From a phage, in assembly GCA_021537435.1 (NCBI GenBank), contig GCA_021537435.1_3050.1: a stretch of DNA of 64,000 nt; one strand, given 5' to 3'. Shown here piece after piece: positions 4,573 through 51,554 of this stretch (position 1 is its first letter; the number at the start of each line of letters is the position of its first letter). The notes beneath the pieces were generated by a model that searched no databases, was not told where the DNA came from, and saw only the letters and a program-made list of their open reading frames with translations. The translations under genes were made by a program, and so were the position numbers.

Positions 4573-6197
<1,625 letters not shown>

Positions 6198-16631: not shown

Positions 16632-17320
16632 ATTATAAATTAATATATGATAATTTAATTAATAGAGCCCAGAATCGGGCTCGCCTTAATGGATACACTG
16701 AAACACATCATATAATTCCTAGATGTATGGGTGGTACAAATGATAAGTGTAATTTAGTAGAACTAACGGCTGAAGAACATTTTATAGCCCATAAACTTTT
16801 AGCTAAAATTCATCCAAACCATTACGGTATAATTAAAGCTGTTATATGTATGGGGATGAATTCAAATACTCATGAAAGACACGTCAATAAATCTTACGCA
16901 TGGGAACGTCGTAAAATGGCAGAACTTCAATCCGGCGAAGGTAATCCATTTTACGGAAAACACCATACGGAAGAACATAAACAATATATGTCAAAACTCA
17001 TGAAAAGTCGTCCAATTACATGGGGAAATAAAATTAGTAAAACTAAAAGAATGAACCCAACGAAATGGACTGAAGAAGCTAAAAGATTACATTCAATCAA
17101 TCAATCGGGTAAAAATAACGGCATGTATGGAAGGAAACATTCCGCTAAATCTATTCAGAAAATTAAAGATAACATGCCAGATAATTCAGGAGCTAATAAC
17201 CCAGCTGCTAAACCTATAGAAGTAAATGGTGTTAAGTATAAATGTATGAAAGATGCTTCTAAAGCTACTGGATTATCAATGTACAAACTAAGAATACTTA
17301 GAAAAACAGTTAATTTATAA
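16628..17320 (+). CDS. HNH homing endonuclease-like protein with NUMOD-type DNA-binding repeats (TTG start)
   Basis: 230-aa ORF; HNH core HHIIPRCMGG…N…EEHFIAH; two GxxNPxYGKHH-like repeats; no in-frame ATG upstream of the HNH motif, but TTG at 16628 follows SD AAAGAGG by 6 nt and overlaps the uvsW stop. Confidence 0.8.
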   Translation: MNYKLIYDNLINRAQNRARLNGYTETHHIIPRCMGGTNDKCNLVELTAEEHFIAHKLLAKIHPNHYGIIKAVICMGMNSNTHERHVNKSYAWERRKMAELQSGEGNPFYGKHHTEEHKQYMSKLMKSRPITWGNKISKTKRMNPTKWTEEAKRLHSINQSGKNNGMYGRKHSAKSIQKIKDNMPDNSGANNPAAKPIEVNGVKYKCMKDASKATGLSMYKLRILRKTVNL

Positions 17321-17334
17321 GGGCTTCGGCCCTT
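17319..17334 (+). terminator. hairpin immediately after the HNH ORF stop
   Basis: AAGGGC-ttcg-GCCCTT; weak U tract. Confidence 0.35.
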
Positions 17335-17345
17335 TGGAGAAAAAG

Positions 17346-17576
17346 ATGTTACTAGAATTTAAACAATTTCTTTATGAAGCTTCTATTGATGAATTTATGG
17401 GTAAAATTGCCTCTTGTCAAACATTAGAAGGTTTAGAAGAACTTGAAGCTTATTATAAGAAAAGAGTTAAAGAAACTGAATTAAAAGATACTGATGACAT
17501 CTCAGTCAGAGATGCTTTGGCAGGAAAAAGAGCTGAATTAGAAGATTCAGACGATGAAGTAGAAGAAAGCTTTTAA
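17346..17576 (+). CDS. UvsW.1-like small protein
   Basis: ORF track starts at TTG 17334; the ATG at 17346 (MLLEFKQFLYEAS…) gives 76 aa, matching T4 UvsW.1 as I recall it. Confidence 0.8.
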   Translation: MLLEFKQFLYEASIDEFMGKIASCQTLEGLEELEAYYKKRVKETELKDTDDISVRDALAGKRAELEDSDDEVEESF

Positions 17577-17631
17577 ATTAAAAAAGGCCCAACCAAAAAG
17601 GAAGGGCCAAAACTATAGACTAAAGGTCACA

Positions 17632-40874: not shown

Positions 40875-42462
<1,588 letters not shown>

Positions 42463-42489
42463 AATAAAATGGGCCTTGTGGCCCACTCC

Positions 42490-42992
42490 TTAAAAATATT
42501 TTTTAAAACTCATCATAACTTTATCATCAACATCATTATCAATCTGTGCTACAAGGTAAGATGACAGTTCTACTTCTTGTGGCGCGGATTGAACATTATC
42601 AGAATTAAGATATTCACGAATCCAAGGATACGGATGTTTAACCGGAGCATCAGTAATTGGGCATGGAAGACCGCACTGTTTCATACGAGATACAGTTAAG
42701 TAATCAATAAAGCTCCACATGCTATTTGTATTTAATCCAGGAACATCGCCATCTTTAAATAAATGAACTGCCCAGTCTTTTTCTTGACGGTTAACTTCCA
42801 TGAAAATATCAACTGCTTCTTGTTCACACTCTTGAGCAATTTTAACCCATTCATCGCCATCAGTACCAGATTGAAGTTGACGAATAATATATTGGGTGCC
42901 TTTAAGGTGAAGCTGTTCATCGCGTGCAATGAACTTCATAATCTTGGCATTACCTTCCATGATTTCCATGTTTTTATGGAAGTTGAAAGTAC
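42490..42992 (-). CDS. nrdB: ribonucleotide reductase small subunit NrdB, exon 2
   Basis: Frame encodes (C)TFNFHKNMEIMEGNAKIMKFIARDEQLHL… to stop; 3' splice site placed after intron-terminal G at 42993. Confidence 0.85.
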
Positions 42993-44082
42993 CGTTATGT
43001 TCGATTGAGCTCGCTAATTCTCAATCCGTTCTCTTATGAACTGCTACATATTACTATGCAGACCAGACTATATCACAATCCCAGAGGGATTCTCCCCATT
43101 TCGAGTCGCTTGACCCTACGTCCGAAGACTAGTCGTTGAACCTTGCTTTGCAATTGTCGCCGTGCCATCGTTTATATGTTGATGGTGATAAATCTTTCTT
43201 ATCACAATATGGACAATTCAATTGAATTCTATTTGGATTTAATTTACATCTGTCATTATGTTTTAGATAAAATCCAGGACCTTTACCAATGTGACCACAG
43301 AAATCACATGTGATTTCTTTTTGTGCAGGATGGGTCCCGTTCTTAACCATTTCTAATGTTTTTGCTGATGTTCTTTTCTTATGGTCTTCTGATAAGAAAT
43401 GATGTGAACCGTCATTTACCCGTTTTGATTGAGTTTCTGACTGCATTTTACCACCGCAAAATACATGAGTACCTTCTTTTATAGCTGCAATATTACGTTC
43501 TTTAACTTTTGCAATATGCTCAGCTTGTTGAAAATTATGTATACCTAATGCAACTCTATTTAAATTAGATTTACGCTGTATTTCACCATCTAAAAGATGA
43601 AATGTACCATTTTCTATCTTAGATTTAATAGAGGCAATATTTTTAGCTCGTACTTCAGGGATATTAAAAATCTGGATTTCTCTAGATTTTGCGGCTTTAG
43701 AAGCTAATTCAGAAATTTCTTCAGGAGAATATTTCATTCTAAGCTTTATAGCATGACAAGCCTGGTAATCTTTTTGAGCTAAATGTATATCATAATGTTC
43801 CTGTATAGAAAGGCACATCAAATTATCTAAATCATTATTTTCACGGTTACCGTCTTTATGATGGATTTCGTATGTTCTTCCATCAGAATCTTTAGGTATA
43901 GGTCCGTTAGCATCTATCCAAATTTTTCTATAGTTCAATTGTGCATCCTCTTAAAAGTATAATCATATTTATATTATACTAATTAAAGGTGCAAGCAAAA
44001 CCTTGGCTGCTAGTTTTCCATAAAGGACTTTCCAGCAATTAAAGGAGTTTTCGATAAACGTTACCGTTTAAAGGCGCATTTT
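42993..44082 (-). mobile_element. group I intron in nrdB (1090 nt) carrying I-TevIII
   Basis: Exon-1 frame hits TAA right after …RFYVSFA; splicing GCG-T|…G|GT-ACT restores SFA-C-TFNF, colinear with E. coli NrdB; 3' part resembles the td intron 3' core. Confidence 0.85.
43129..43938 (-). CDS. I-TevIII: intron-encoded HNH homing endonuclease I-TevIII, full length
   Basis: 269 aa; HNH motif EIHHKDGNRENNDLDNLMCLSIQEHYDIH; C-terminal Cys-rich zinc-finger-like region. Confidence 0.85.
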   Translation of the reverse strand: MNYRKIWIDANGPIPKDSDGRTYEIHHKDGNRENNDLDNLMCLSIQEHYDIHLAQKDYQACHAIKLRMKYSPEEISELASKAAKSREIQIFNIPEVRAKNIASIKSKIENGTFHLLDGEIQRKSNLNRVALGIHNFQQAEHIAKVKERNIAAIKEGTHVFCGGKMQSETQSKRVNDGSHHFLSEDHKKRTSAKTLEMVKNGTHPAQKEITCDFCGHIGKGPGFYLKHNDRCKLNPNRIQLNCPYCDKKDLSPSTYKRWHGDNCKARFND

Positions 44083-44746
44083 ACGCAAAAGATACATAAA
44101 AACGAATAGCTTCCAATGCGTTGATTACATGGAGGCAAAGGTAAAGAGATTTCATCAGATCTCGTTTAGCTCTTTGCTCAACGTCTTTATCAGCTAGAAT
44201 TAGACCTTGGTCTTTATAATATTCAACCATGTCTTTAGCATTTTCCCATTCACGGGTTTTAACCAAGACATCATCATAATAGCGACCGATAGATTCAGCA
44301 CGTTTCATGATAGCTTCATCTAATACAATCTCATCAAATACCTTTGATGGATCAGTATAAAGATTTCGCATGATATGAGTATATGAACGACTGTGAATAG
44401 TTTCACTAAAAGTCCATGTAGCAACCCATGTATCAAGGCTTGGGTCTGAAATTAATGACATAAGTACAGCAGATGGCGCACGACCCTGAATGCTATCCAA
44501 AAGTGATTGATACTTCAGGTTATTAGTAAAAATATTCTGCTGATACTGAGGAAGTTTATTAAATTGTGCAGCATCCATCATCAAGTTTACTTCTTCAGGA
44601 CGCCAGAAAAATGATAATTGCTTTTCAGTCAAATCTTCAAAAACTTTATGGCGTTGAATATCATAACGCGCAATACCAAGACCTGAACCGAAGAACATAG
44701 GTTCTTTTAAAACATCAACTGGATTTGTATTAAAAACTGTAGACAT
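44083..44746 (-). CDS. nrdB: ribonucleotide reductase small subunit NrdB, exon 1
   Basis: 221 codons, MSTVFNTNPVDVLKEPMFFGSGLG…ALEAIRFYVSFA, ending at the 5' splice site after U (44083). Confidence 0.88.
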
Positions 44747-44780
44747 ATTATTCTCGCTTATTATAGGTTTAAATATTTAA

Positions 44781-45572
44781 TCACATATTATGTATAAGCA
44801 CTTCGGTCTGAAATGATGCACCCTTCTTTTGCTTCCTATACATGGTTTCAAAATATTCAATTTTGAAATTATTAGAAAGGGCCCAATCTTTTAAAATATA
44901 ATTATTAATATCGTCTGATAGATTATTAGTGATAATAAATTTAGACTTCGATTGTTTAATTTTGTCTAATAATTCTAATTCATCCTTTTCTTCCCAGCCT
45001 GAATATTTAAATTTAGTAGAAAGATACGGCGGGTCAATGAATAAATTTTTGTTTTCAAAATCCAAATCTCTGAATGATTTATTACTAAATGTAAATCGGT
45101 GCTGTCTATTTTTAAATTCAGAAAATTTATCCTGCTGAGACTTATTAAAAGAAGTTCTGGAATACTTGGCTCTATTGGCGAAAGCCGCGTTATAATTCCC
45201 ATTACTAGAAAATCGGATTAACGAACTGAATGAAAATAAATGTAGAACATAAAGATATAATCCGTTTTTGGTTTTATCGTATTCTTTTGACAGATTATAA
45301 AAAGGTGCTGAATCTTTGTCATTCAAATTAAAATCTTCAATAATTTTAACTATATCATTAATTGAAGATGATTTCATCTTTTTATACATGTCTATAAGAG
45401 GAGTATTAATATCATTACATATAACATCTCTCTGACAATTCATAGAAAATCCAAGACCACCACAAAAAGCATCCAAAACAGGCTTATCGTCAAAGCGGTT
45501 TGAAAATTGTCTAATAAATGGCATATACTTATGTTTTGCACCTGGATATGTTATGGCAGGTAGGTCTTTCAT
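44781..45572 (-). CDS. Dam-family (alpha-class) DNA N6-adenine methyltransferase-like protein
   Basis: 263 aa; motif I DAFCGGLG at aa 34-41; Dam-like YPGAK and CNDIN; LYLYVLH; catalytic DPPY at aa 180-183 (nt 45024-45035 verified by hand). Confidence 0.8.
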   Translation of the reverse strand: MKDLPAITYPGAKHKYMPFIRQFSNRFDDKPVLDAFCGGLGFSMNCQRDVICNDINTPLIDMYKKMKSSSINDIVKIIEDFNLNDKDSAPFYNLSKEYDKTKNGLYLYVLHLFSFSSLIRFSSNGNYNAAFANRAKYSRTSFNKSQQDKFSEFKNRQHRFTFSNKSFRDLDFENKNLFIDPPYLSTKFKYSGWEEKDELELLDKIKQSKSKFIITNNLSDDINNYILKDWALSNNFKIEYFETMYRKQKKGASFQTEVLIHNM

Positions 45573-45615
45573 ATTATTTCTCGTTGTTGGTGACTCGTCC
45601 GTGAGTCAAATTATA

Positions 45616-47880
45616 TCATAATTTACAGGATGAACAATCTTCAGCTTTTGGAGTTTCTATTTCATAATCATCAGTACCAGAACCATCACGGGTATTATGA
45701 TAATAGAAATTTTTTCCGCCAAAATACCAAAAGTACAAAAGGTCATCAATCATTACAGACATTGGAACCTTTCCTTTTGGAAAAATCTGCGGGTCATAAT
45801 ATGTATTTGCTGAAGCTGATTGACATACCCATTTAAGCATAATAGCTACCTGCGTAAGATAAGGTTTATTACCTTTCTTAGCTAATTTCCATGTATAATC
45901 ATATAGGTCTATGTTATGTTCAATATTGGGCACGACTTGATTAAAGGAACCCTCTTTTGATTCTTTAACCGAGACTGGTCCACGTGGAGGCTCGATACCG
46001 TTTGTACTGTTAGAAACTTGGGAAGATGACTCACATGGCATAAGTGCTGATAATGTGCTATTACGGATGCCAAAGAGCTTAAGGTCTTCCCGCAGCGACG
46101 ACCAGTCACAAACGTATTTTGGAGCTGCGATTTGGTCAATCTTTTTATTGTACCAGTCGATAGGTAGTTCGCCTCGAGACCAACGAGTGTCTGAATAATA
46201 TTCGCAAGGTCCTTTTTCTTTGGCGAGCTTAATGGATGCTTTAATGAGTCCATACTGTAATCTCTCAAATAGTTCATGTGTTAAATCGTTAGCATCTTCA
46301 TAAGAAGCAAAGTTACTTGCCAGCCAAGCTGCATAGTTAGTAACACCTACACCAAGGTTACGACGCTTTTTAGCTTTTTCTGCTTCAGGAACTGGATATC
46401 CTTGGTAATCCAAAAGATTATCAAGAGCACGAACTTGAACTTCTGCCAATTCATTAATTTTATCTTGGTCTTGCCAATCGAAGTTATCCAACACAAATGC
46501 AGATAACGTACACAATCCAATTTCAGCATCAGGGCTATTCACATCATTTGTTGGAATAGCAATTTCACAGCATAAGTTACTCTGACGAATAGGTGCCTTT
46601 TCACGAATAAACGGAGTATAGTTATTCGTATTATCAATGAACTGTACATAAATCCTTGCTGTTCCTGAACGTTCAGTCATGAGCAATTCAAATAGTTCAC
46701 GGGCTTTAATACGCTTTTTACGAATATTAGGGTCTTTTTCTGCCGCTTCGTATAATTCACGGAAACGGTCTTGGTCTTTAAAATAAGAATAATAAAGCTC
46801 TCCACCCATTTCATGGGGACTGAACAAAGTAATGTAATCGTTCTTTCCAAAACGTTCCATCATCAAATCATTCAGTTGAACACCATAATCCATATGACGA
46901 ATGCGGTTTTCTTCTACGCCTTTGTTATTTTTCAAAACGAGAAGATTTTCAACTTCCAAATGCCAAATAGGATAATAAGCAGTAGCAGCGCCGCCACGAA
47001 TTCCACCCTGTGAACATGATTTAACTGCAGTCTGAAAATGTTTCCAAAAAGGAATAACACCGGTATGGCGTACTTCACCCATGCCAATCTTAGAACCTTC
47101 GGCACGAATCATACCAACGTTAATACCAATTCCAGCACGTTTGGAGATATATTCAACAATTGAAGCGGAAGCCTTATTGATAGACTTCAATGAATCTCCT
47201 GCCTCAATAACAACACATGAACTAAACTGTCGAGTCGGAGTACGGCAACCAGCCATAATAGGAGTTGGCAATGAAATCTGTCGAGTAGATACTGCTTCAT
47301 AAAAACGGATAACATGTTTTAATCTATCAACAGGTTCGTCTTGATGCAATGCCATTCCAATAGCCATAAATGCAAACTGTGGAGTTTCATAAATTTGACC
47401 AGTGGTTTTATCTTTAACTAAATATTTTTCTTTTAATTGCATCGCCCCGGAATAAGTAAATTCCATATCCCGCTCGTGCTTAATTTTTGATTCTAAAAAT
47501 GTAATTTCTTCTGCTGAATATTTTGACAACAATTCAGGGTCGTATTTACCTTCATTTACACAGTAAGAAATATGGTCAATAAATGAACGTGGTTCATACT
47601 GCCTGTAAACATGCTTACGAAGAGCGAACATTAAGCAGCGTGCAGCTACATATTGGTAATCAGGCTCTTCAACTGAAATAGAATTCGCAGCAGCCTTAAT
47701 GACAATAGTCTGAATATCATCAGTTGTCATTCCATCACGGAGATAAGATTTAATATTTTCATATAATTCATAAGGATCTACTGATGTTCCCTCAGCTGCC
47801 CAAGATAAAACTTTAATAATTTTTTGTGGGTCAAAGCTCTGAGAAACACCACTACTTTTGATAACATTAATTAATTGCAT
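45616..47880 (-). CDS. nrdA: ribonucleotide reductase large subunit NrdA
   Basis: 754 aa, N-terminal ATP-cone, class Ia RNR alpha. Confidence 0.93.
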   Translation of the reverse strand: MQLINVIKSSGVSQSFDPQKIIKVLSWAAEGTSVDPYELYENIKSYLRDGMTTDDIQTIVIKAAANSISVEEPDYQYVAARCLMFALRKHVYRQYEPRSFIDHISYCVNEGKYDPELLSKYSAEEITFLESKIKHERDMEFTYSGAMQLKEKYLVKDKTTGQIYETPQFAFMAIGMALHQDEPVDRLKHVIRFYEAVSTRQISLPTPIMAGCRTPTRQFSSCVVIEAGDSLKSINKASASIVEYISKRAGIGINVGMIRAEGSKIGMGEVRHTGVIPFWKHFQTAVKSCSQGGIRGGAATAYYPIWHLEVENLLVLKNNKGVEENRIRHMDYGVQLNDLMMERFGKNDYITLFSPHEMGGELYYSYFKDQDRFRELYEAAEKDPNIRKKRIKARELFELLMTERSGTARIYVQFIDNTNNYTPFIREKAPIRQSNLCCEIAIPTNDVNSPDAEIGLCTLSAFVLDNFDWQDQDKINELAEVQVRALDNLLDYQGYPVPEAEKAKKRRNLGVGVTNYAAWLASNFASYEDANDLTHELFERLQYGLIKASIKLAKEKGPCEYYSDTRWSRGELPIDWYNKKIDQIAAPKYVCDWSSLREDLKLFGIRNSTLSALMPCESSSQVSNSTNGIEPPRGPVSVKESKEGSFNQVVPNIEHNIDLYDYTWKLAKKGNKPYLTQVAIMLKWVCQSASANTYYDPQIFPKGKVPMSVMIDDLLYFWYFGGKNFYYHNTRDGSGTDDYEIETPKAEDCSSCKL

Positions 47881-48197
47881 AAGTCCTCAACTTGAAAATC
47901 GTCTTTAAACAATCGGTTAACTATATGAGCTATTATATCACCATGACACGGCTTTGGTTTACATGTGCATCCTAGCCTCATTCCACGTAAAGGCTCTAAA
48001 TGTGCTTTAGTTATTTCTCCGGATTTAATTCGACGTATAAAATCTTTTTTGAATAATTCAATGGCAGCCTCCCGGCTGCCAGCATCTTTACCGACGTAAT
48101 TTCCCCAAAATGTACCACGGTGAATATTAACATCAAAGTCGGATTTATATTTATTCACTACTTGGCATAGACGGCCCGCGCGGTGATAATTCGTCAT
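47871..48197 (-). CDS. hypothetical Cys/His-containing protein (nrdA.1 position)
   Basis: 108-aa ORF overlapping the nrdA start. Confidence 0.6.
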
Positions 48198-48414
48198 ATT
48201 GTTTTTCCGTTAAAACAGTAATATCATAATAACAATCTGAAGAAGTTTTAACCGTAGAAATTTTATTATCAAAATACTCACGAGTCATTTTATGAGTATA
48301 ATATTTTTTGCCATAAATGATAATAGGCTGATTTGGTCCTGGAACTTCTAACTCGCTTGGGTTAGGAAGTGTAAAAAGAACTACACCAGAAGTATCTTTA
48401 AATCGTAAAATCAT
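48151..48414 (-). CDS. hypothetical protein (nrdA.2 position)
   Basis: 87-aa ORF between td exon 2 and nrdA.1. Confidence 0.5.
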
Positions 48415-48437
48415 ATATCCTCACAATTAATAATTAA

Positions 48438-48749
48438 TTACACCGCCATTTTTCCTTTCAAGACGCCGTGGGACTGATAATCTTTGAGAACGAAATCTTT
48501 AGGCCTGAGTTTAAGAATGTATTCCAATTGTTCTTTAGTAGAAAGATAGCGGAATTTATAAGGCAATCCGCCTATTACCAGTTCACAAAGCTCTTTAGGT
48601 TCACGACGCAAAATTTCTTTACATTGTTCTACGTGATTCATATAGATATGAGTATTACCACCGGAAAATATCAAATCTCCCGGAATAAGATTACACATCT
48701 TAGCTACAATATGAACTAACGTAGCATATGATGCAATATTAAATGGAAG
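48438..48749 (-). CDS. td: thymidylate synthase, exon 2
   Basis: Encodes LPFNIASYATLVHIVAKMC…; begins immediately after intron-terminal ATG|CTTCCATTTAAT. Confidence 0.9.
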   Translation of the reverse strand, partial: LPFNIASYATLVHIVAKMCNLIPGDLIFSGGNTHIYMNHVEQCKEILRREPKELCELVIGGLPYKFRYLSTKEQLEYILKLRPKDFVLKDYQSHGVLKGKMAV

Positions 48750-49765
48750 CATTATGTTCAGATAAGGTCGTTAATCTTACCCCGGAATTATATCCAGCTG
48801 CATGTCACCATGCAGATCAGACTATATCTCCAACTTGTTAAAGCAAGTTGTCTATCGTTTCGAGTCACTTGACCCTACTCCCCAAAGGGATAGTCGTTAG
48901 GCATTTATGTAGAACCAATTCCATTTATCAGATTTTACACGATAAGTAACTAATCCAGACGAAATTTTAAAATGTCTAGCTGCATCTGCTGCACAATCAA
49001 AAATAACCCCATCACATGAAATCTTTTTAATATTACTAGGCTTTTTACCTTTCATCTTTTCTGATATTTTAGATTTAGTTATGTCTGAATGCTTATGATT
49101 AAAGAATGAATTATTTTCACCTGAACGATTTCTGCATTTACTACAAGTATAAGCAGAAGTTTGTATGCGAACACCGCACTTACAAAACTTATGGGTTTCT
49201 GGATTCCAACGCCCGTTTTTACTTCCGGGTTTACTGTAAAGAGCTTTCCGACCATCAGGTCCAAGTTTAAGCATCTTAGCTTTAACAGTTTTAGAACGTT
49301 TCTTAATAATTTCTTCTTTTAATGGATGCGTAGAACATGTATCACCAAACGTTGCATCAGCAATATTGTATCCATTAATTTTAGAATTAAGCTCTTTAAT
49401 CCAAAAATTTTCTCGTTCAATAATCAAATCTTTCTCATATGGAATTTCTTCCAAAATAGAACATTCAAACACATTACCATGTTTGTTAAAAGACCTCTGA
49501 AGCTTTATAGAAGAATGGCATCCTTTTTCTAAATCTTTAAAATGCCTCTTCCATCTCTTTTCAAAATCTTTAGCACTTCCTACATATACTTTATTGTTTA
49601 AAGTATTTTTAATCTGATAAATTCCGCTTTTCATAAATACCTCTTTAAATATAGAAGTATTTATTAAAGGGCAGTCCTACAATTTAGCACGGGATTGTCT
49701 ACTAGAGAGGTTCCCCGTTTAGATAGATTACAAGTATAAGTCACCTTATACTCAGGCCTCAATTA
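48750..49765 (-). mobile_element. group I intron in td (1016 nt) carrying I-TevI
   Basis: 5' exon ends …GTTTTCTTGGGT; intron starts TAATTGAGGCCTGAGTATAAGGTGAC…; 3' end …CATAATG; length equals the T4 td intron. Confidence 0.92.
48897..49634 (-). CDS. I-TevI: intron-encoded GIY-YIG homing endonuclease I-TevI
   Basis: 245 aa; MKSGIYQIKNTLNNKVYVGSAKDFEKRWKRH; Cys-rich linker and C-terminal DNA-binding region. Confidence 0.92.
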   Translation of the reverse strand: MKSGIYQIKNTLNNKVYVGSAKDFEKRWKRHFKDLEKGCHSSIKLQRSFNKHGNVFECSILEEIPYEKDLIIERENFWIKELNSKINGYNIADATFGDTCSTHPLKEEIIKKRSKTVKAKMLKLGPDGRKALYSKPGSKNGRWNPETHKFCKCGVRIQTSAYTCSKCRNRSGENNSFFNHKHSDITKSKISEKMKGKKPSNIKKISCDGVIFDCAADAARHFKISSGLVTYRVKSDKWNWFYINA

Positions 49766-50314
49766 ACCCAAGAAAACATCTACTGATCGTTGATACCACT
49801 GCAAATCCAAATAGCCATTACGCACATTAAACTGATAGAACATATGACAAGGCGGTAATGCCATATATTTAAGTTCAGCTGGATTCCACGCAGAAACAAT
49901 TTGTCGCCTATCATTCGGCAGTTTTTTAATACGATCAATAACTTCTATAATTTGGTCTACACCACCAAAATCACGCCATTGTTTTCCATAAATTGGACCA
50001 AGTTCACCGCTATGGTATCCTAAATCTTTTGCTTGATTTTCGTAATTTTCATCCCAGACTGTTTTGCCTTGAATTAATGAATCATGCTGAATTAATCGTA
50101 AATCATTGACATTCGTGCTTCCTGATAAAAACCATATTAACTCAGCAATGCAAGCTTTCCAAGCGAGCTTTTTAGTTGTTACTGCAGGAAAACCTTTGGT
50201 TAAATCCCAACGCAATTTAGTACCGAACAAAGCAATTGTTCCTGTGCCCGTTCGGTCATCGGTTTCATAGCCGTTTTCAAGAATGTCTTTAATTAAATCT
50301 TGGTATTGTTTCAT
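49766..50314 (-). CDS. td: thymidylate synthase, exon 1
   Basis: 183 codons MKQYQDLIKDILENGYETDDRTGTG…ALPPCH…VDVFLG, ending at the splice site. Confidence 0.92.
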
Positions 50315-50359
50315 TTAGTACCTTATATAAATTATAATACATTTTATGAAGCTAAATAA

Positions 50360-50707
50360 TCAATACGGTTTAGCATCAAATTTTCTCTCAATTTCAGGCG
50401 TGAAATATAATTCTTTACCGCGTTTGGAAAAGCGACCAATAATATGATAATTATTCTCATCAAACGTGATATTGCCGATATCCATAGCTTTCAACCAAAT
50501 ATCGATATTTCTATCCAACTTTATGTCAAAATTCCAATACGGAGAACTATTACCGAAAATACTGCAAGCGGATTCAGTAAAACAACTACTATAAATCTTG
50601 TCTTTAGGAACTACTAATTGATAGACGCCTTTAATAAACTGAGGACCCTGCCATTTTGGTTGTTTCGCGTCTTTTTCTAATAGAATAGGGTAATAATTAA
50701 AATTCAT
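50360..50707 (-). CDS. hypothetical protein in the frd-td insert (115 aa from ATG; 119 aa from GTG at 50719)
   Basis: ORF fills a 417-bp insert at the frd/td junction; no recognisable motif. Confidence 0.5.
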   Translation of the reverse strand: MNFNYYPILLEKDAKQPKWQGPQFIKGVYQLVVPKDKIYSSCFTESACSIFGNSSPYWNFDIKLDRNIDIWLKAMDIGNITFDENNYHIIGRFSKRGKELYFTPEIERKFDAKPY

Positions 50708-50727
50708 ATTTTCCGCCACGTGTTATT

Positions 50728-51554
<827 letters not shown>

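Follow-up and report, generated by a model that had tools for sequence, protein, structure and literature searches.

The nrd region of T4-like phages is known from earlier work as a hot spot where endonuclease genes insert and flanking markers are co-converted (PMC2790892). Between nrdA and nrdB, T4 and RB3 carry mobE, a free-standing HNH homing endonuclease gene that forms an optional insert in the nrd transcription unit, and whose product nicks nrdB at nt 122–126 (PMC2790892). T4 Dam (PDB 1Q0S, 1YF3, 1YFJ, 1YFL), the best-matching solved relative of the protein discussed here, is a GATC enzyme encoded elsewhere, between genes 56 and 61. Here we describe a gene for a T4Dam-like N6-adenine methyltransferase that occupies the nrdA-nrdB slot itself, in a 64,000-nucleotide stretch of phage DNA (GenBank assembly GCA_021537435.1, contig GCA_021537435.1_3050.1; hereafter the window, meaning the whole stretch analysed). 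The window comes from a Tequatrovirus, is ~97% identical to phiD1 and RB3 across 24 kb, and corresponds to approximately 95–159 kb in T4 coordinates; the canonical dam locus lies beyond its reach.

A D12-family methyltransferase in the nrdA-nrdB slot

The gene is an intact open reading frame (ORF):

44781–45572, minus strand: methyltransferase coding sequence, 263 amino acids including the ATG start, with the TGA stop codon within the span and no internal stop codons

A preliminary description of this DNA, made from the letters alone, had quoted four motifs in the ORF (YPGAK, DAFCGGLG, CNDIN and DPPY), and all of them are present (ITYPGAKHKY at residues 7–16, VLDAFCGGLGF at 32–42, VICNDINT at 50–57 and FIDPPYL at 178–184). 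They follow the order of the alpha class, with DAFCGGLG (FxGxG) at residues 34–41, a recognition hairpin at ~115–134 and DPPY at 180–183. The protein matches the Pfam D12 profile PF02086 with 85.7 bits against a cutoff of 22 (E 5.5e-24; residues 9–245 aligned to profile positions 1–251 of 253) and phrog_56 (DNA methyltransferase) with an E value of 9e-36. Its best sequence match in the PDB is T4 Dam (E 4e-38, 35% identity by BLASTP), followed by DpnM (3e-6) and E. coli Dam (1e-4). As the preliminary description proposed, profile, sequence match and motif order agree that this is a D12-family, alpha-class N6-adenine DNA methyltransferase. The PF02086 score, the T4 Dam match and the substitution pattern among orthologues (given below) place the observation far beyond chance.

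An AlphaFold2 model built from 21 sequences (predicted local distance difference test score 87, predicted template modelling score 0.86) was compared with the PDB by Foldseek. The closest solved folds are T4Dam–DNA complexes (template modelling score, TM, 0.83; E 1e-21), E. coli Dam (EcoDam, 0.75) and DpnM (0.73), all of them GATC enzymes. Likeness to T4 Dam extends from the shared D12 alpha-class architecture and similar length (263 vs 259 amino acids) to the FCGGL motif for S-adenosylmethionine (AdoMet), DPPY and most DNA-contact residues (K11, F111, S112, R116 and R130 of T4 Dam). Both proteins are orphan, phage-encoded and accessory, and the window protein differs by a 3-residue deletion near helix 195–208. 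EcoDam and Streptococcus pneumoniae DpnM (PDB 2G1P and 2DPM) are of the same family and fold (TM 0.72–0.75) at only ~16–18% identity in structural alignment. Both of these belong to cellular genomes, EcoDam as an orphan and DpnM as a restriction-modification enzyme, whereas the gene described here is carried by a phage.

Within this well-known enzyme family, the protein falls, by the searches and tree given here, in a new and very small separate clade. A word-indexed search of 5.8 billion proteins returned only four clusters at 76–99% identity, the next match being at 33%, and when 1.84 billion representatives (clustered at 50% identity) were scanned exhaustively with HMMER, one representative stood for the whole clade (next match 116 bits, 34%). 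No further relatives were found when IMG/VR viral contigs were scanned with peptide patterns. The protein scores 33.5 bits with NCBIfam NF008152, the E. coli Dam equivalog, below its 441-bit cutoff. In a neighbour-joining tree the clade is separate from that of T4 Dam, and its nearest outgroup, in sister position, is an enzyme of Alcaligenes phage Afa-NA1 (PV550095, entered under the name DNA adenine methylase Dam; 40.6% identity). This uncharacterised enzyme shares with the clade a 6–7-residue insertion after the recognition hairpin, but its genomic context is unrelated, as it adjoins topoisomerase genes in a 78-kb phage.

The slot and the boundaries of the insert

The ORF positions bear out the reported location between nrdA and an intron-containing nrdB. 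The gene begins 43 nt downstream of the nrdA stop codon and ends 34 nt upstream of the nrdB start codon (44746), and nrdA and nrdB flank it directly in the window as in all other carriers. No restriction endonuclease gene adjoins it; the methyltransferase is an orphan, without a partner nuclease. The slot and its neighbours are laid out as follows:

45616–47880, minus strand: nrdA, the upstream neighbour, from the ORF list and the annotation of relatives
45591–45608, minus strand: hairpin UGACUC-ACGGAC-GAGUCA, lying between the nrdA stop codon, which it closely follows, and the insert
44767–45585, minus strand: insert relative to the empty nrdA-nrdB site, 819 bp, from comparison with empty-site WilhelmHis and the carriers NR1 and BGP
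44747–44766, minus strand: nrdB translation-initiation region as retained in the window, CTATAATAAGCGAGAATAAT and then ATG; the empty site has a homologous sequence
44084–44746, minus strand: nrdB exon 1, the downstream neighbour; the exon end is an estimate from alignment to the intron-less nrdB of NR1
Loci L008 and L009, ~5975–5992, and locus L010 (PhiKpNIH-6), ~4975–4990: the corresponding hairpin at other loci

Three states of the slot can be distinguished. It holds mobE in T4 (a 141-amino-acid mobE plus nrdB.1) and in RB3 (a full-length mobE of 243 amino acids), it is an empty 51 bp in WilhelmHis and most other T4-like phages, and it holds the 263-amino-acid methyltransferase in the window, NR1 and BGP. 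The statement in the preliminary description that the T4 slot holds mobE was right, and no methyltransferase occupies the slot in T4.

Comparison with the empty site defines the insert. The empty site reads TGA TATAATT-TGACTCACGGACGAGTCA-CCAAC, junction, TATTAACTAAGCGGAAAATTT ATG. The window retains the hairpin and CCAAC, after which come AACGAGAAATAAT, the methyltransferase ORF, TTAAATATTTAAAC and the nrdB leader CTATAATAAGCGAGAATAAT ATG. The ends of the insert are uncertain by 3 nt, AAC being present at both junctions. The insert consists of a 13-nt leader with a GAG Shine-Dalgarno-like element (45580–45582), the coding sequence and a 14-nt trailer; CF-SP2, fDHCT2, PhiKpNIH-6 and two Logan contigs have the same architecture. 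The nrdB leader resembles the GAG-N7-ATG start region of the methyltransferase gene itself.

The hairpin after nrdA is common to empty-site and cassette-bearing phages, and is therefore a part of the host locus, not of the cassette. Its stability is modest (-7.5 kcal/mol, z = -1.96; a value of -9.0 kcal/mol was also obtained) and it has no U-tract, while its stem shows a compensatory change between genera (GACTC/GAGTC to GGCTC/GAGCC in Marfavirus-type loci). No terminator-like site was found within the nrdA-nrdB interval, and the minus strand at 44000–48600 yielded neither the T4 late TATAAATA motif nor a complete MotA-box promoter motif; together this suggests that the methyltransferase gene is probably co-transcribed with nrdA and nrdB. 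A promoter or terminator of its own was considered and rejected; a sigma-70-like ATGACA-17-TATAAT (45322–45294) lies inside the ORF, in a position unsuited to drive the gene.

The insert resembles a homing cassette in its patchy distribution at one conserved intergenic site and in its signs of lateral transfer, but it contains neither an HNH nor a GIY-YIG nuclease, D12 being its only Pfam domain. Like mobE it is patchily distributed among T4-like phages, yet the two have no sequence relationship. Their junctions differ too: mobE and the nrdA stop codon overlap, and mobE has a terminator hairpin within it, while the methyltransferase cassette lies downstream of the hairpin known from the empty site. 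When the 869-bp interval was compared with the T4 and RB3 slots by blastn and tblastx, similarity to mobE was at chance level only (E ~0.2 or higher). The suggestion that the cassette replaced a homing endonuclease gene is therefore unsupported, and replacement of mobE is rejected, since the cassette has the junctions of the empty-site allele and no remnant of mobE is left in the interval.

The window carries endonuclease genes nearby. Its nrdB is split by an intron with a 269-amino-acid, full-length HNH ORF of the I-TevIII type (43129–43938, minus strand); RB3 is annotated with the same arrangement, whereas the T4 copy of this ORF is truncated. In a side observation, td is likewise split by a 245-amino-acid GIY-YIG ORF of the I-TevI type (48897–49634, minus strand). 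A scan of 41500–51000 at Rfam gathering thresholds returned nothing, including for the ORF-containing group I introns of nrdB and td. Separately, the 3' end of nrdB exon 1 (44084–44330) is 76–77% identical to NR1 and BGP between flanks of 96–100%, and the database sequence closest to it is the T4 nrdB allele (93%; most other records 60–80%). This looks like a mosaic, co-conversion-type patch beside the intron insertion site.

We considered whether methylation might confer immunity to MobE or I-TevIII. The MobE nick site corresponds approximately to 44621–44625 of the window and the intron insertion site lies near 44084, while nrdB exon 1 contains GATC only at 44158 and 44350. Assuming GATC specificity, this idea is rejected, as there is no GATC at either site. 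Codon 42 of nrdB, in the nick region, is AAG in the window, the codon reported for T2 and for all phages without mobE (PMC2790892). This suggests that the window genome could be a recipient for mobE homing, and a co-infecting mobE-positive phage would therefore be expected to convert the slot to mobE.

Distribution, canonical dam and lateral exchange

A 2.2-kb query spanning the nrdA 3' end, the cassette and the nrdB 5' end matched 811 phage records, only 8 of which (~1%) contain the methyltransferase segment, compared with 134 records with mobE. Five of the carriers (NR1, T4_ev240, ECO07P2, 236Ecol005PP and EP02SG) encode a protein 98–100% identical to that of the window. A second allele, at ~78–80% identity, is found in BGP (Tequatrovirus), CF-SP2 (Gelderlandvirus) and fDHCT2, and a third, at 76%, in Klebsiella phage PhiKpNIH-6 (Marfavirus, found separately) and the two Logan contigs. 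The order nrdA, methyltransferase, nrdB, with the same hairpin and leader, is kept in every carrier. Most of these records (the 8 and PhiKpNIH-6 taken together) annotate the gene as a DNA adenine methylase; the cassette is not unique to the window, and a literature search found no paper describing it.

Two records need comment on their annotation. The BGP slot gene (locus L002, 3795–4586) is annotated as a 744-nt hypothetical protein, and its full 792-nt ORF is intact. In PhiKpNIH-6 (MN395284.1) the linear record starts at an arbitrary point inside the gene (locus L010, 5001–5624, and the end of locus L012), which is therefore entered as a misc_feature only. With the ends joined, the ORF is intact except for 3 residues at the junction, and the split is an artefact of assembly and annotation.

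Canonical dam has its place elsewhere in T4:

T4 locus L004, 5847–6626: canonical dam

In the T4 genome this gene occupies 16846–17625, between genes 56 and 61 and ~123 kb from the nrd slot, far outside the region, as the preliminary description had it. With the T4 gene 56–61 region as query, canonical dam was found in 179 of 533 Tequatrovirus-type records (~34%), and is therefore itself an accessory gene. Most dam-less records match the query at ~65% coverage in two pieces, and in most T4-like coliphages, the RB3/RB5 group and RB14 among them, the locus is a short interval without dam. Direct inspection showed canonical dam to be absent between genes 56 and 61 in T4_ev240, NR1 and 236Ecol005PP. 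By tblastn, a single Dam-like place was found in 7 of 9 carriers (including ECO07P2, EP02SG, CF-SP2 and fDHCT2), and the window likewise contains only one. BGP has both genes, the canonical dam (OZ035849.1, 33963–34742) and the slot methyltransferase.

It could be imagined that the slot gene is an ordinary orthologue of T4 dam, transposed from the gene 56–61 locus to the nrd region. T4 Dam is its closest solved relative and most carriers have no dam at the canonical locus, both of which would fit such a move. However, the proteins share only 35% identity, the clade stands apart from T4 Dam in the tree with the Alcaligenes phage enzyme as its nearest outgroup, and canonical dam is missing from around two thirds of Tequatrovirus-type records, with or without the cassette. 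The sequence divergence, together with the coexistence of both genes in BGP, refutes a transposition, to which we give next to no credence. By these sequence comparisons, the slot methyltransferase is a distinct paralogue of canonical dam. Of the earlier characterisation of the gene as "extra or relocated", relocation can thus be set aside, while "extra" holds for BGP; in several other carriers it is the sole Dam-like gene. Mutual exclusion of the two genes was also considered but is not claimed: five related dam-less carriers against a 34% background do not amount to a significant association, and BGP has both.

The slot gene is under purifying selection. The ratio of nonsynonymous to synonymous substitution rates (dN/dS) is 0.07–0.17 in all orthologue pairs, comparable to nrdA, and the protein is therefore maintained by selection. 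Its history is at the same time discordant with that of its neighbour. Between the window and BGP, nucleotide identity is 96.8% in nrdA and 79.5% in the methyltransferase gene; between BGP and CF-SP2 the relation is reversed (79.4% and 91.5%). Loci L008 and L009 differ in nrdA (93.6%) and are identical in the methyltransferase gene (100%). The window and NR1 are 97.7% identical in nrdA and 99.9% in the methyltransferase gene, with a block of ~100% over the cassette and the nrdA 3' end inside flanks of 96–98%. We conclude from this discordance that the gene has been exchanged laterally between T4-like lineages, its slot remaining unchanged. The simplest route of spread suggested by these patterns is homologous recombination in the conserved nrd genes.

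Such exchange raises the question of whether the phage benefits at all. The cassette might be a selfish hitch-hiker of little benefit to its carrier, persisting in a recombination hot spot made by neighbouring homing endonucleases, namely I-TevIII of the nrdB intron, I-TevI of td and MobE of co-infecting phages. The record of the nrd region as an endonuclease hot spot with co-conversion of flanking markers (PMC2790892) is in keeping with this, as are the discordance with nrdA, the identical or near-identical copies in phages with differing flanks, and the full-length I-TevIII ORF ~850 bp away in the window and BGP. On the other hand, the cassette encodes no nuclease (its only Pfam match is D12), and the nrdB intron is absent from 6 of the 8 carriers found with the nrdA-nrdB query, including NR1. 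Its rarity (8 of 811 records, vs 134 with mobE) is unlike that of a successful selfish element, and with AAG at nrdB codon 42, the expected outcome of MobE homing is loss of the cassette rather than its spread. The strong purifying selection argues further that the function of the enzyme matters. We consider the selfish explanation unlikely.

Predicted specificity and role

For EcoDam, the recognition residues treated are K9, Y119, N120, L122, R124, P134 and Y138, of which Y119 intercalates, K9 and Y138 read the first base pair, L122 and P134 contact the third, and R124 reads the guanine of the fourth (PMC4417163). T4Dam contact numbering was mapped onto the window protein by alignment, with residue roles taken from the same work (PMC4417163). 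T4Dam K11 corresponds to K13, the intercalating F111 to F115, S112 to S116, M114 to L118, R116 to R120 and R130 to R134, and the window protein retains 6 of the 7 mapped GATC-contact positions. It likewise has equivalents of EcoDam K9, Y119, L122 and R124. Since the recognition hairpin largely keeps the GATC-reading residues of T4Dam and EcoDam, the predicted target is most likely N6-adenine at GATC or at a closely related or relaxed site.

We suggest that the gene encodes a solitary N6-adenine methyltransferase, predicted to act on GATC or a site close to it, transcribed together with nrdA and nrdB and serving in anti-restriction; we put the probability of this overall reading at roughly 0.6. 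The enzyme would be AdoMet-dependent, with the T4Dam/EcoDam/DpnM fold and no partner nuclease. Its gene would form a promoter-less single-gene cassette that is read as part of the prereplicative nrdA-nrdB message but has a GAG-N7-ATG translation start of its own. The target adenine would be flipped out and methylated via the DPPY pocket, so that the phage's own DNA would become methylated at GATC or a closely related or relaxed site. The phage would benefit by protecting its own DNA from host restriction systems through methylation, which is what T4 Dam is usually credited with, and in phages without canonical dam the slot gene would be the only Dam-like gene. By analogy with T4 Dam and with phage orphan methyltransferases in general (PMC12707154), anti-restriction is the most likely role of the slot methyltransferase. 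At the population level, the gene acts as one of three alternative states of the slot (empty, mobE and methyltransferase) and passes between T4-like phages, most simply by recombination in the conserved nrd flanks.

Several observations weigh against this reading, most of them concerning specificity. The position of T4Dam P126 and EcoDam P134 is occupied by Ala (in the window protein and clade member P0004) or by Ser (in the other alleles, 4 of 6 clade members). A clade-wide insertion of 6–7 residues (AKYSRTS) follows R134, and the guanine-reading R120 is replaced by Lys in the BGP/CF-SP2/fDHCT2 allele. The window protein does not reach the cutoff of the NCBIfam Dam subfamily model TIGR00571 (94.1 bits vs 114.85), and lower scores are obtained for Afa-NA1 (91.4), P0004 (87.4) and the BGP allele (70.2), compared with 239.5 for the T4 Dam control. 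The D12 class includes enzymes with non-GATC sites, and family membership does not by itself assure GATC as the target. In addition, GATC is the most under-represented palindromic tetramer of the window (71 observed vs 219.8 expected under a second-order Markov model, ratio 0.32), with only three sites between 42 and 48 kb and none inside the methyltransferase cassette, and this scarcity would leave a GATC enzyme few targets. As to the role, anti-restriction is only modestly documented for T4 Dam itself, and two thirds of Tequatrovirus-type records do without canonical dam. As a side observation from the same tetramer counts, CTAG comes next after GATC, with an observed-to-expected ratio of 0.64.

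Part of this evidence would be accommodated by an active enzyme of changed or relaxed specificity, for example for a shorter GAT/GAY-type or another site. Such an enzyme would add a modification pattern beyond that of canonical phage Dam, and this would explain why BGP keeps both genes. The TIGR00571 score below the Dam cutoff, the Ala or Ser at the P126/P134 position in every clade member, the insertion after the recognition hairpin, the Lys at position 120 in one allele and the presence of both genes in BGP all point in this direction. Against it stand the conservation of 6 of the 7 mapped contact positions in the window protein and the fact that the three nearest solved folds are all GATC enzymes. 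We regard a change of specificity as a real though lesser possibility. Replacement of P126 by Ser, as present in 4 of the 6 clade members, is reportedly the T2/T4 dam-h hypermethylating change. A bolder and rather doubtful extension is that the clade may represent a relaxed-specificity, dam-h-like enzyme methylating hydroxymethylcytosine-containing phage DNA beyond GATC; its gene would circulate among T4-like genera as a mobile cassette for anti-restriction, in competition with mobE for the nrdA-nrdB slot and spread by endonuclease-stimulated recombination there.

Whatever its exact target, the gene adds to the picture of the nrdA–nrdB slot of T-even phages. This textbook homing endonuclease hot spot has a third allelic state, in which it holds a non-nuclease accessory gene exchanged between genera. 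It follows as well that Dam in T4-like phages is more than one gene, with a distant paralogue either standing alone or coexisting with canonical dam. Apart from the slot state and the possible change in specificity, this is an ordinary accessory gene of modest interest, and sequence specificity is the main question that the clade raises. If the changes in the recognition domain do alter specificity, the clade would offer a natural test of the control that P126/P134 exerts over Dam discrimination and would be an addition to the known phage anti-restriction methyltransferases. In practical terms, the gene bears on the reading of methylation-sensitive assays and of N6-methyladenine (6mA) calls for therapeutic T4-like phages.

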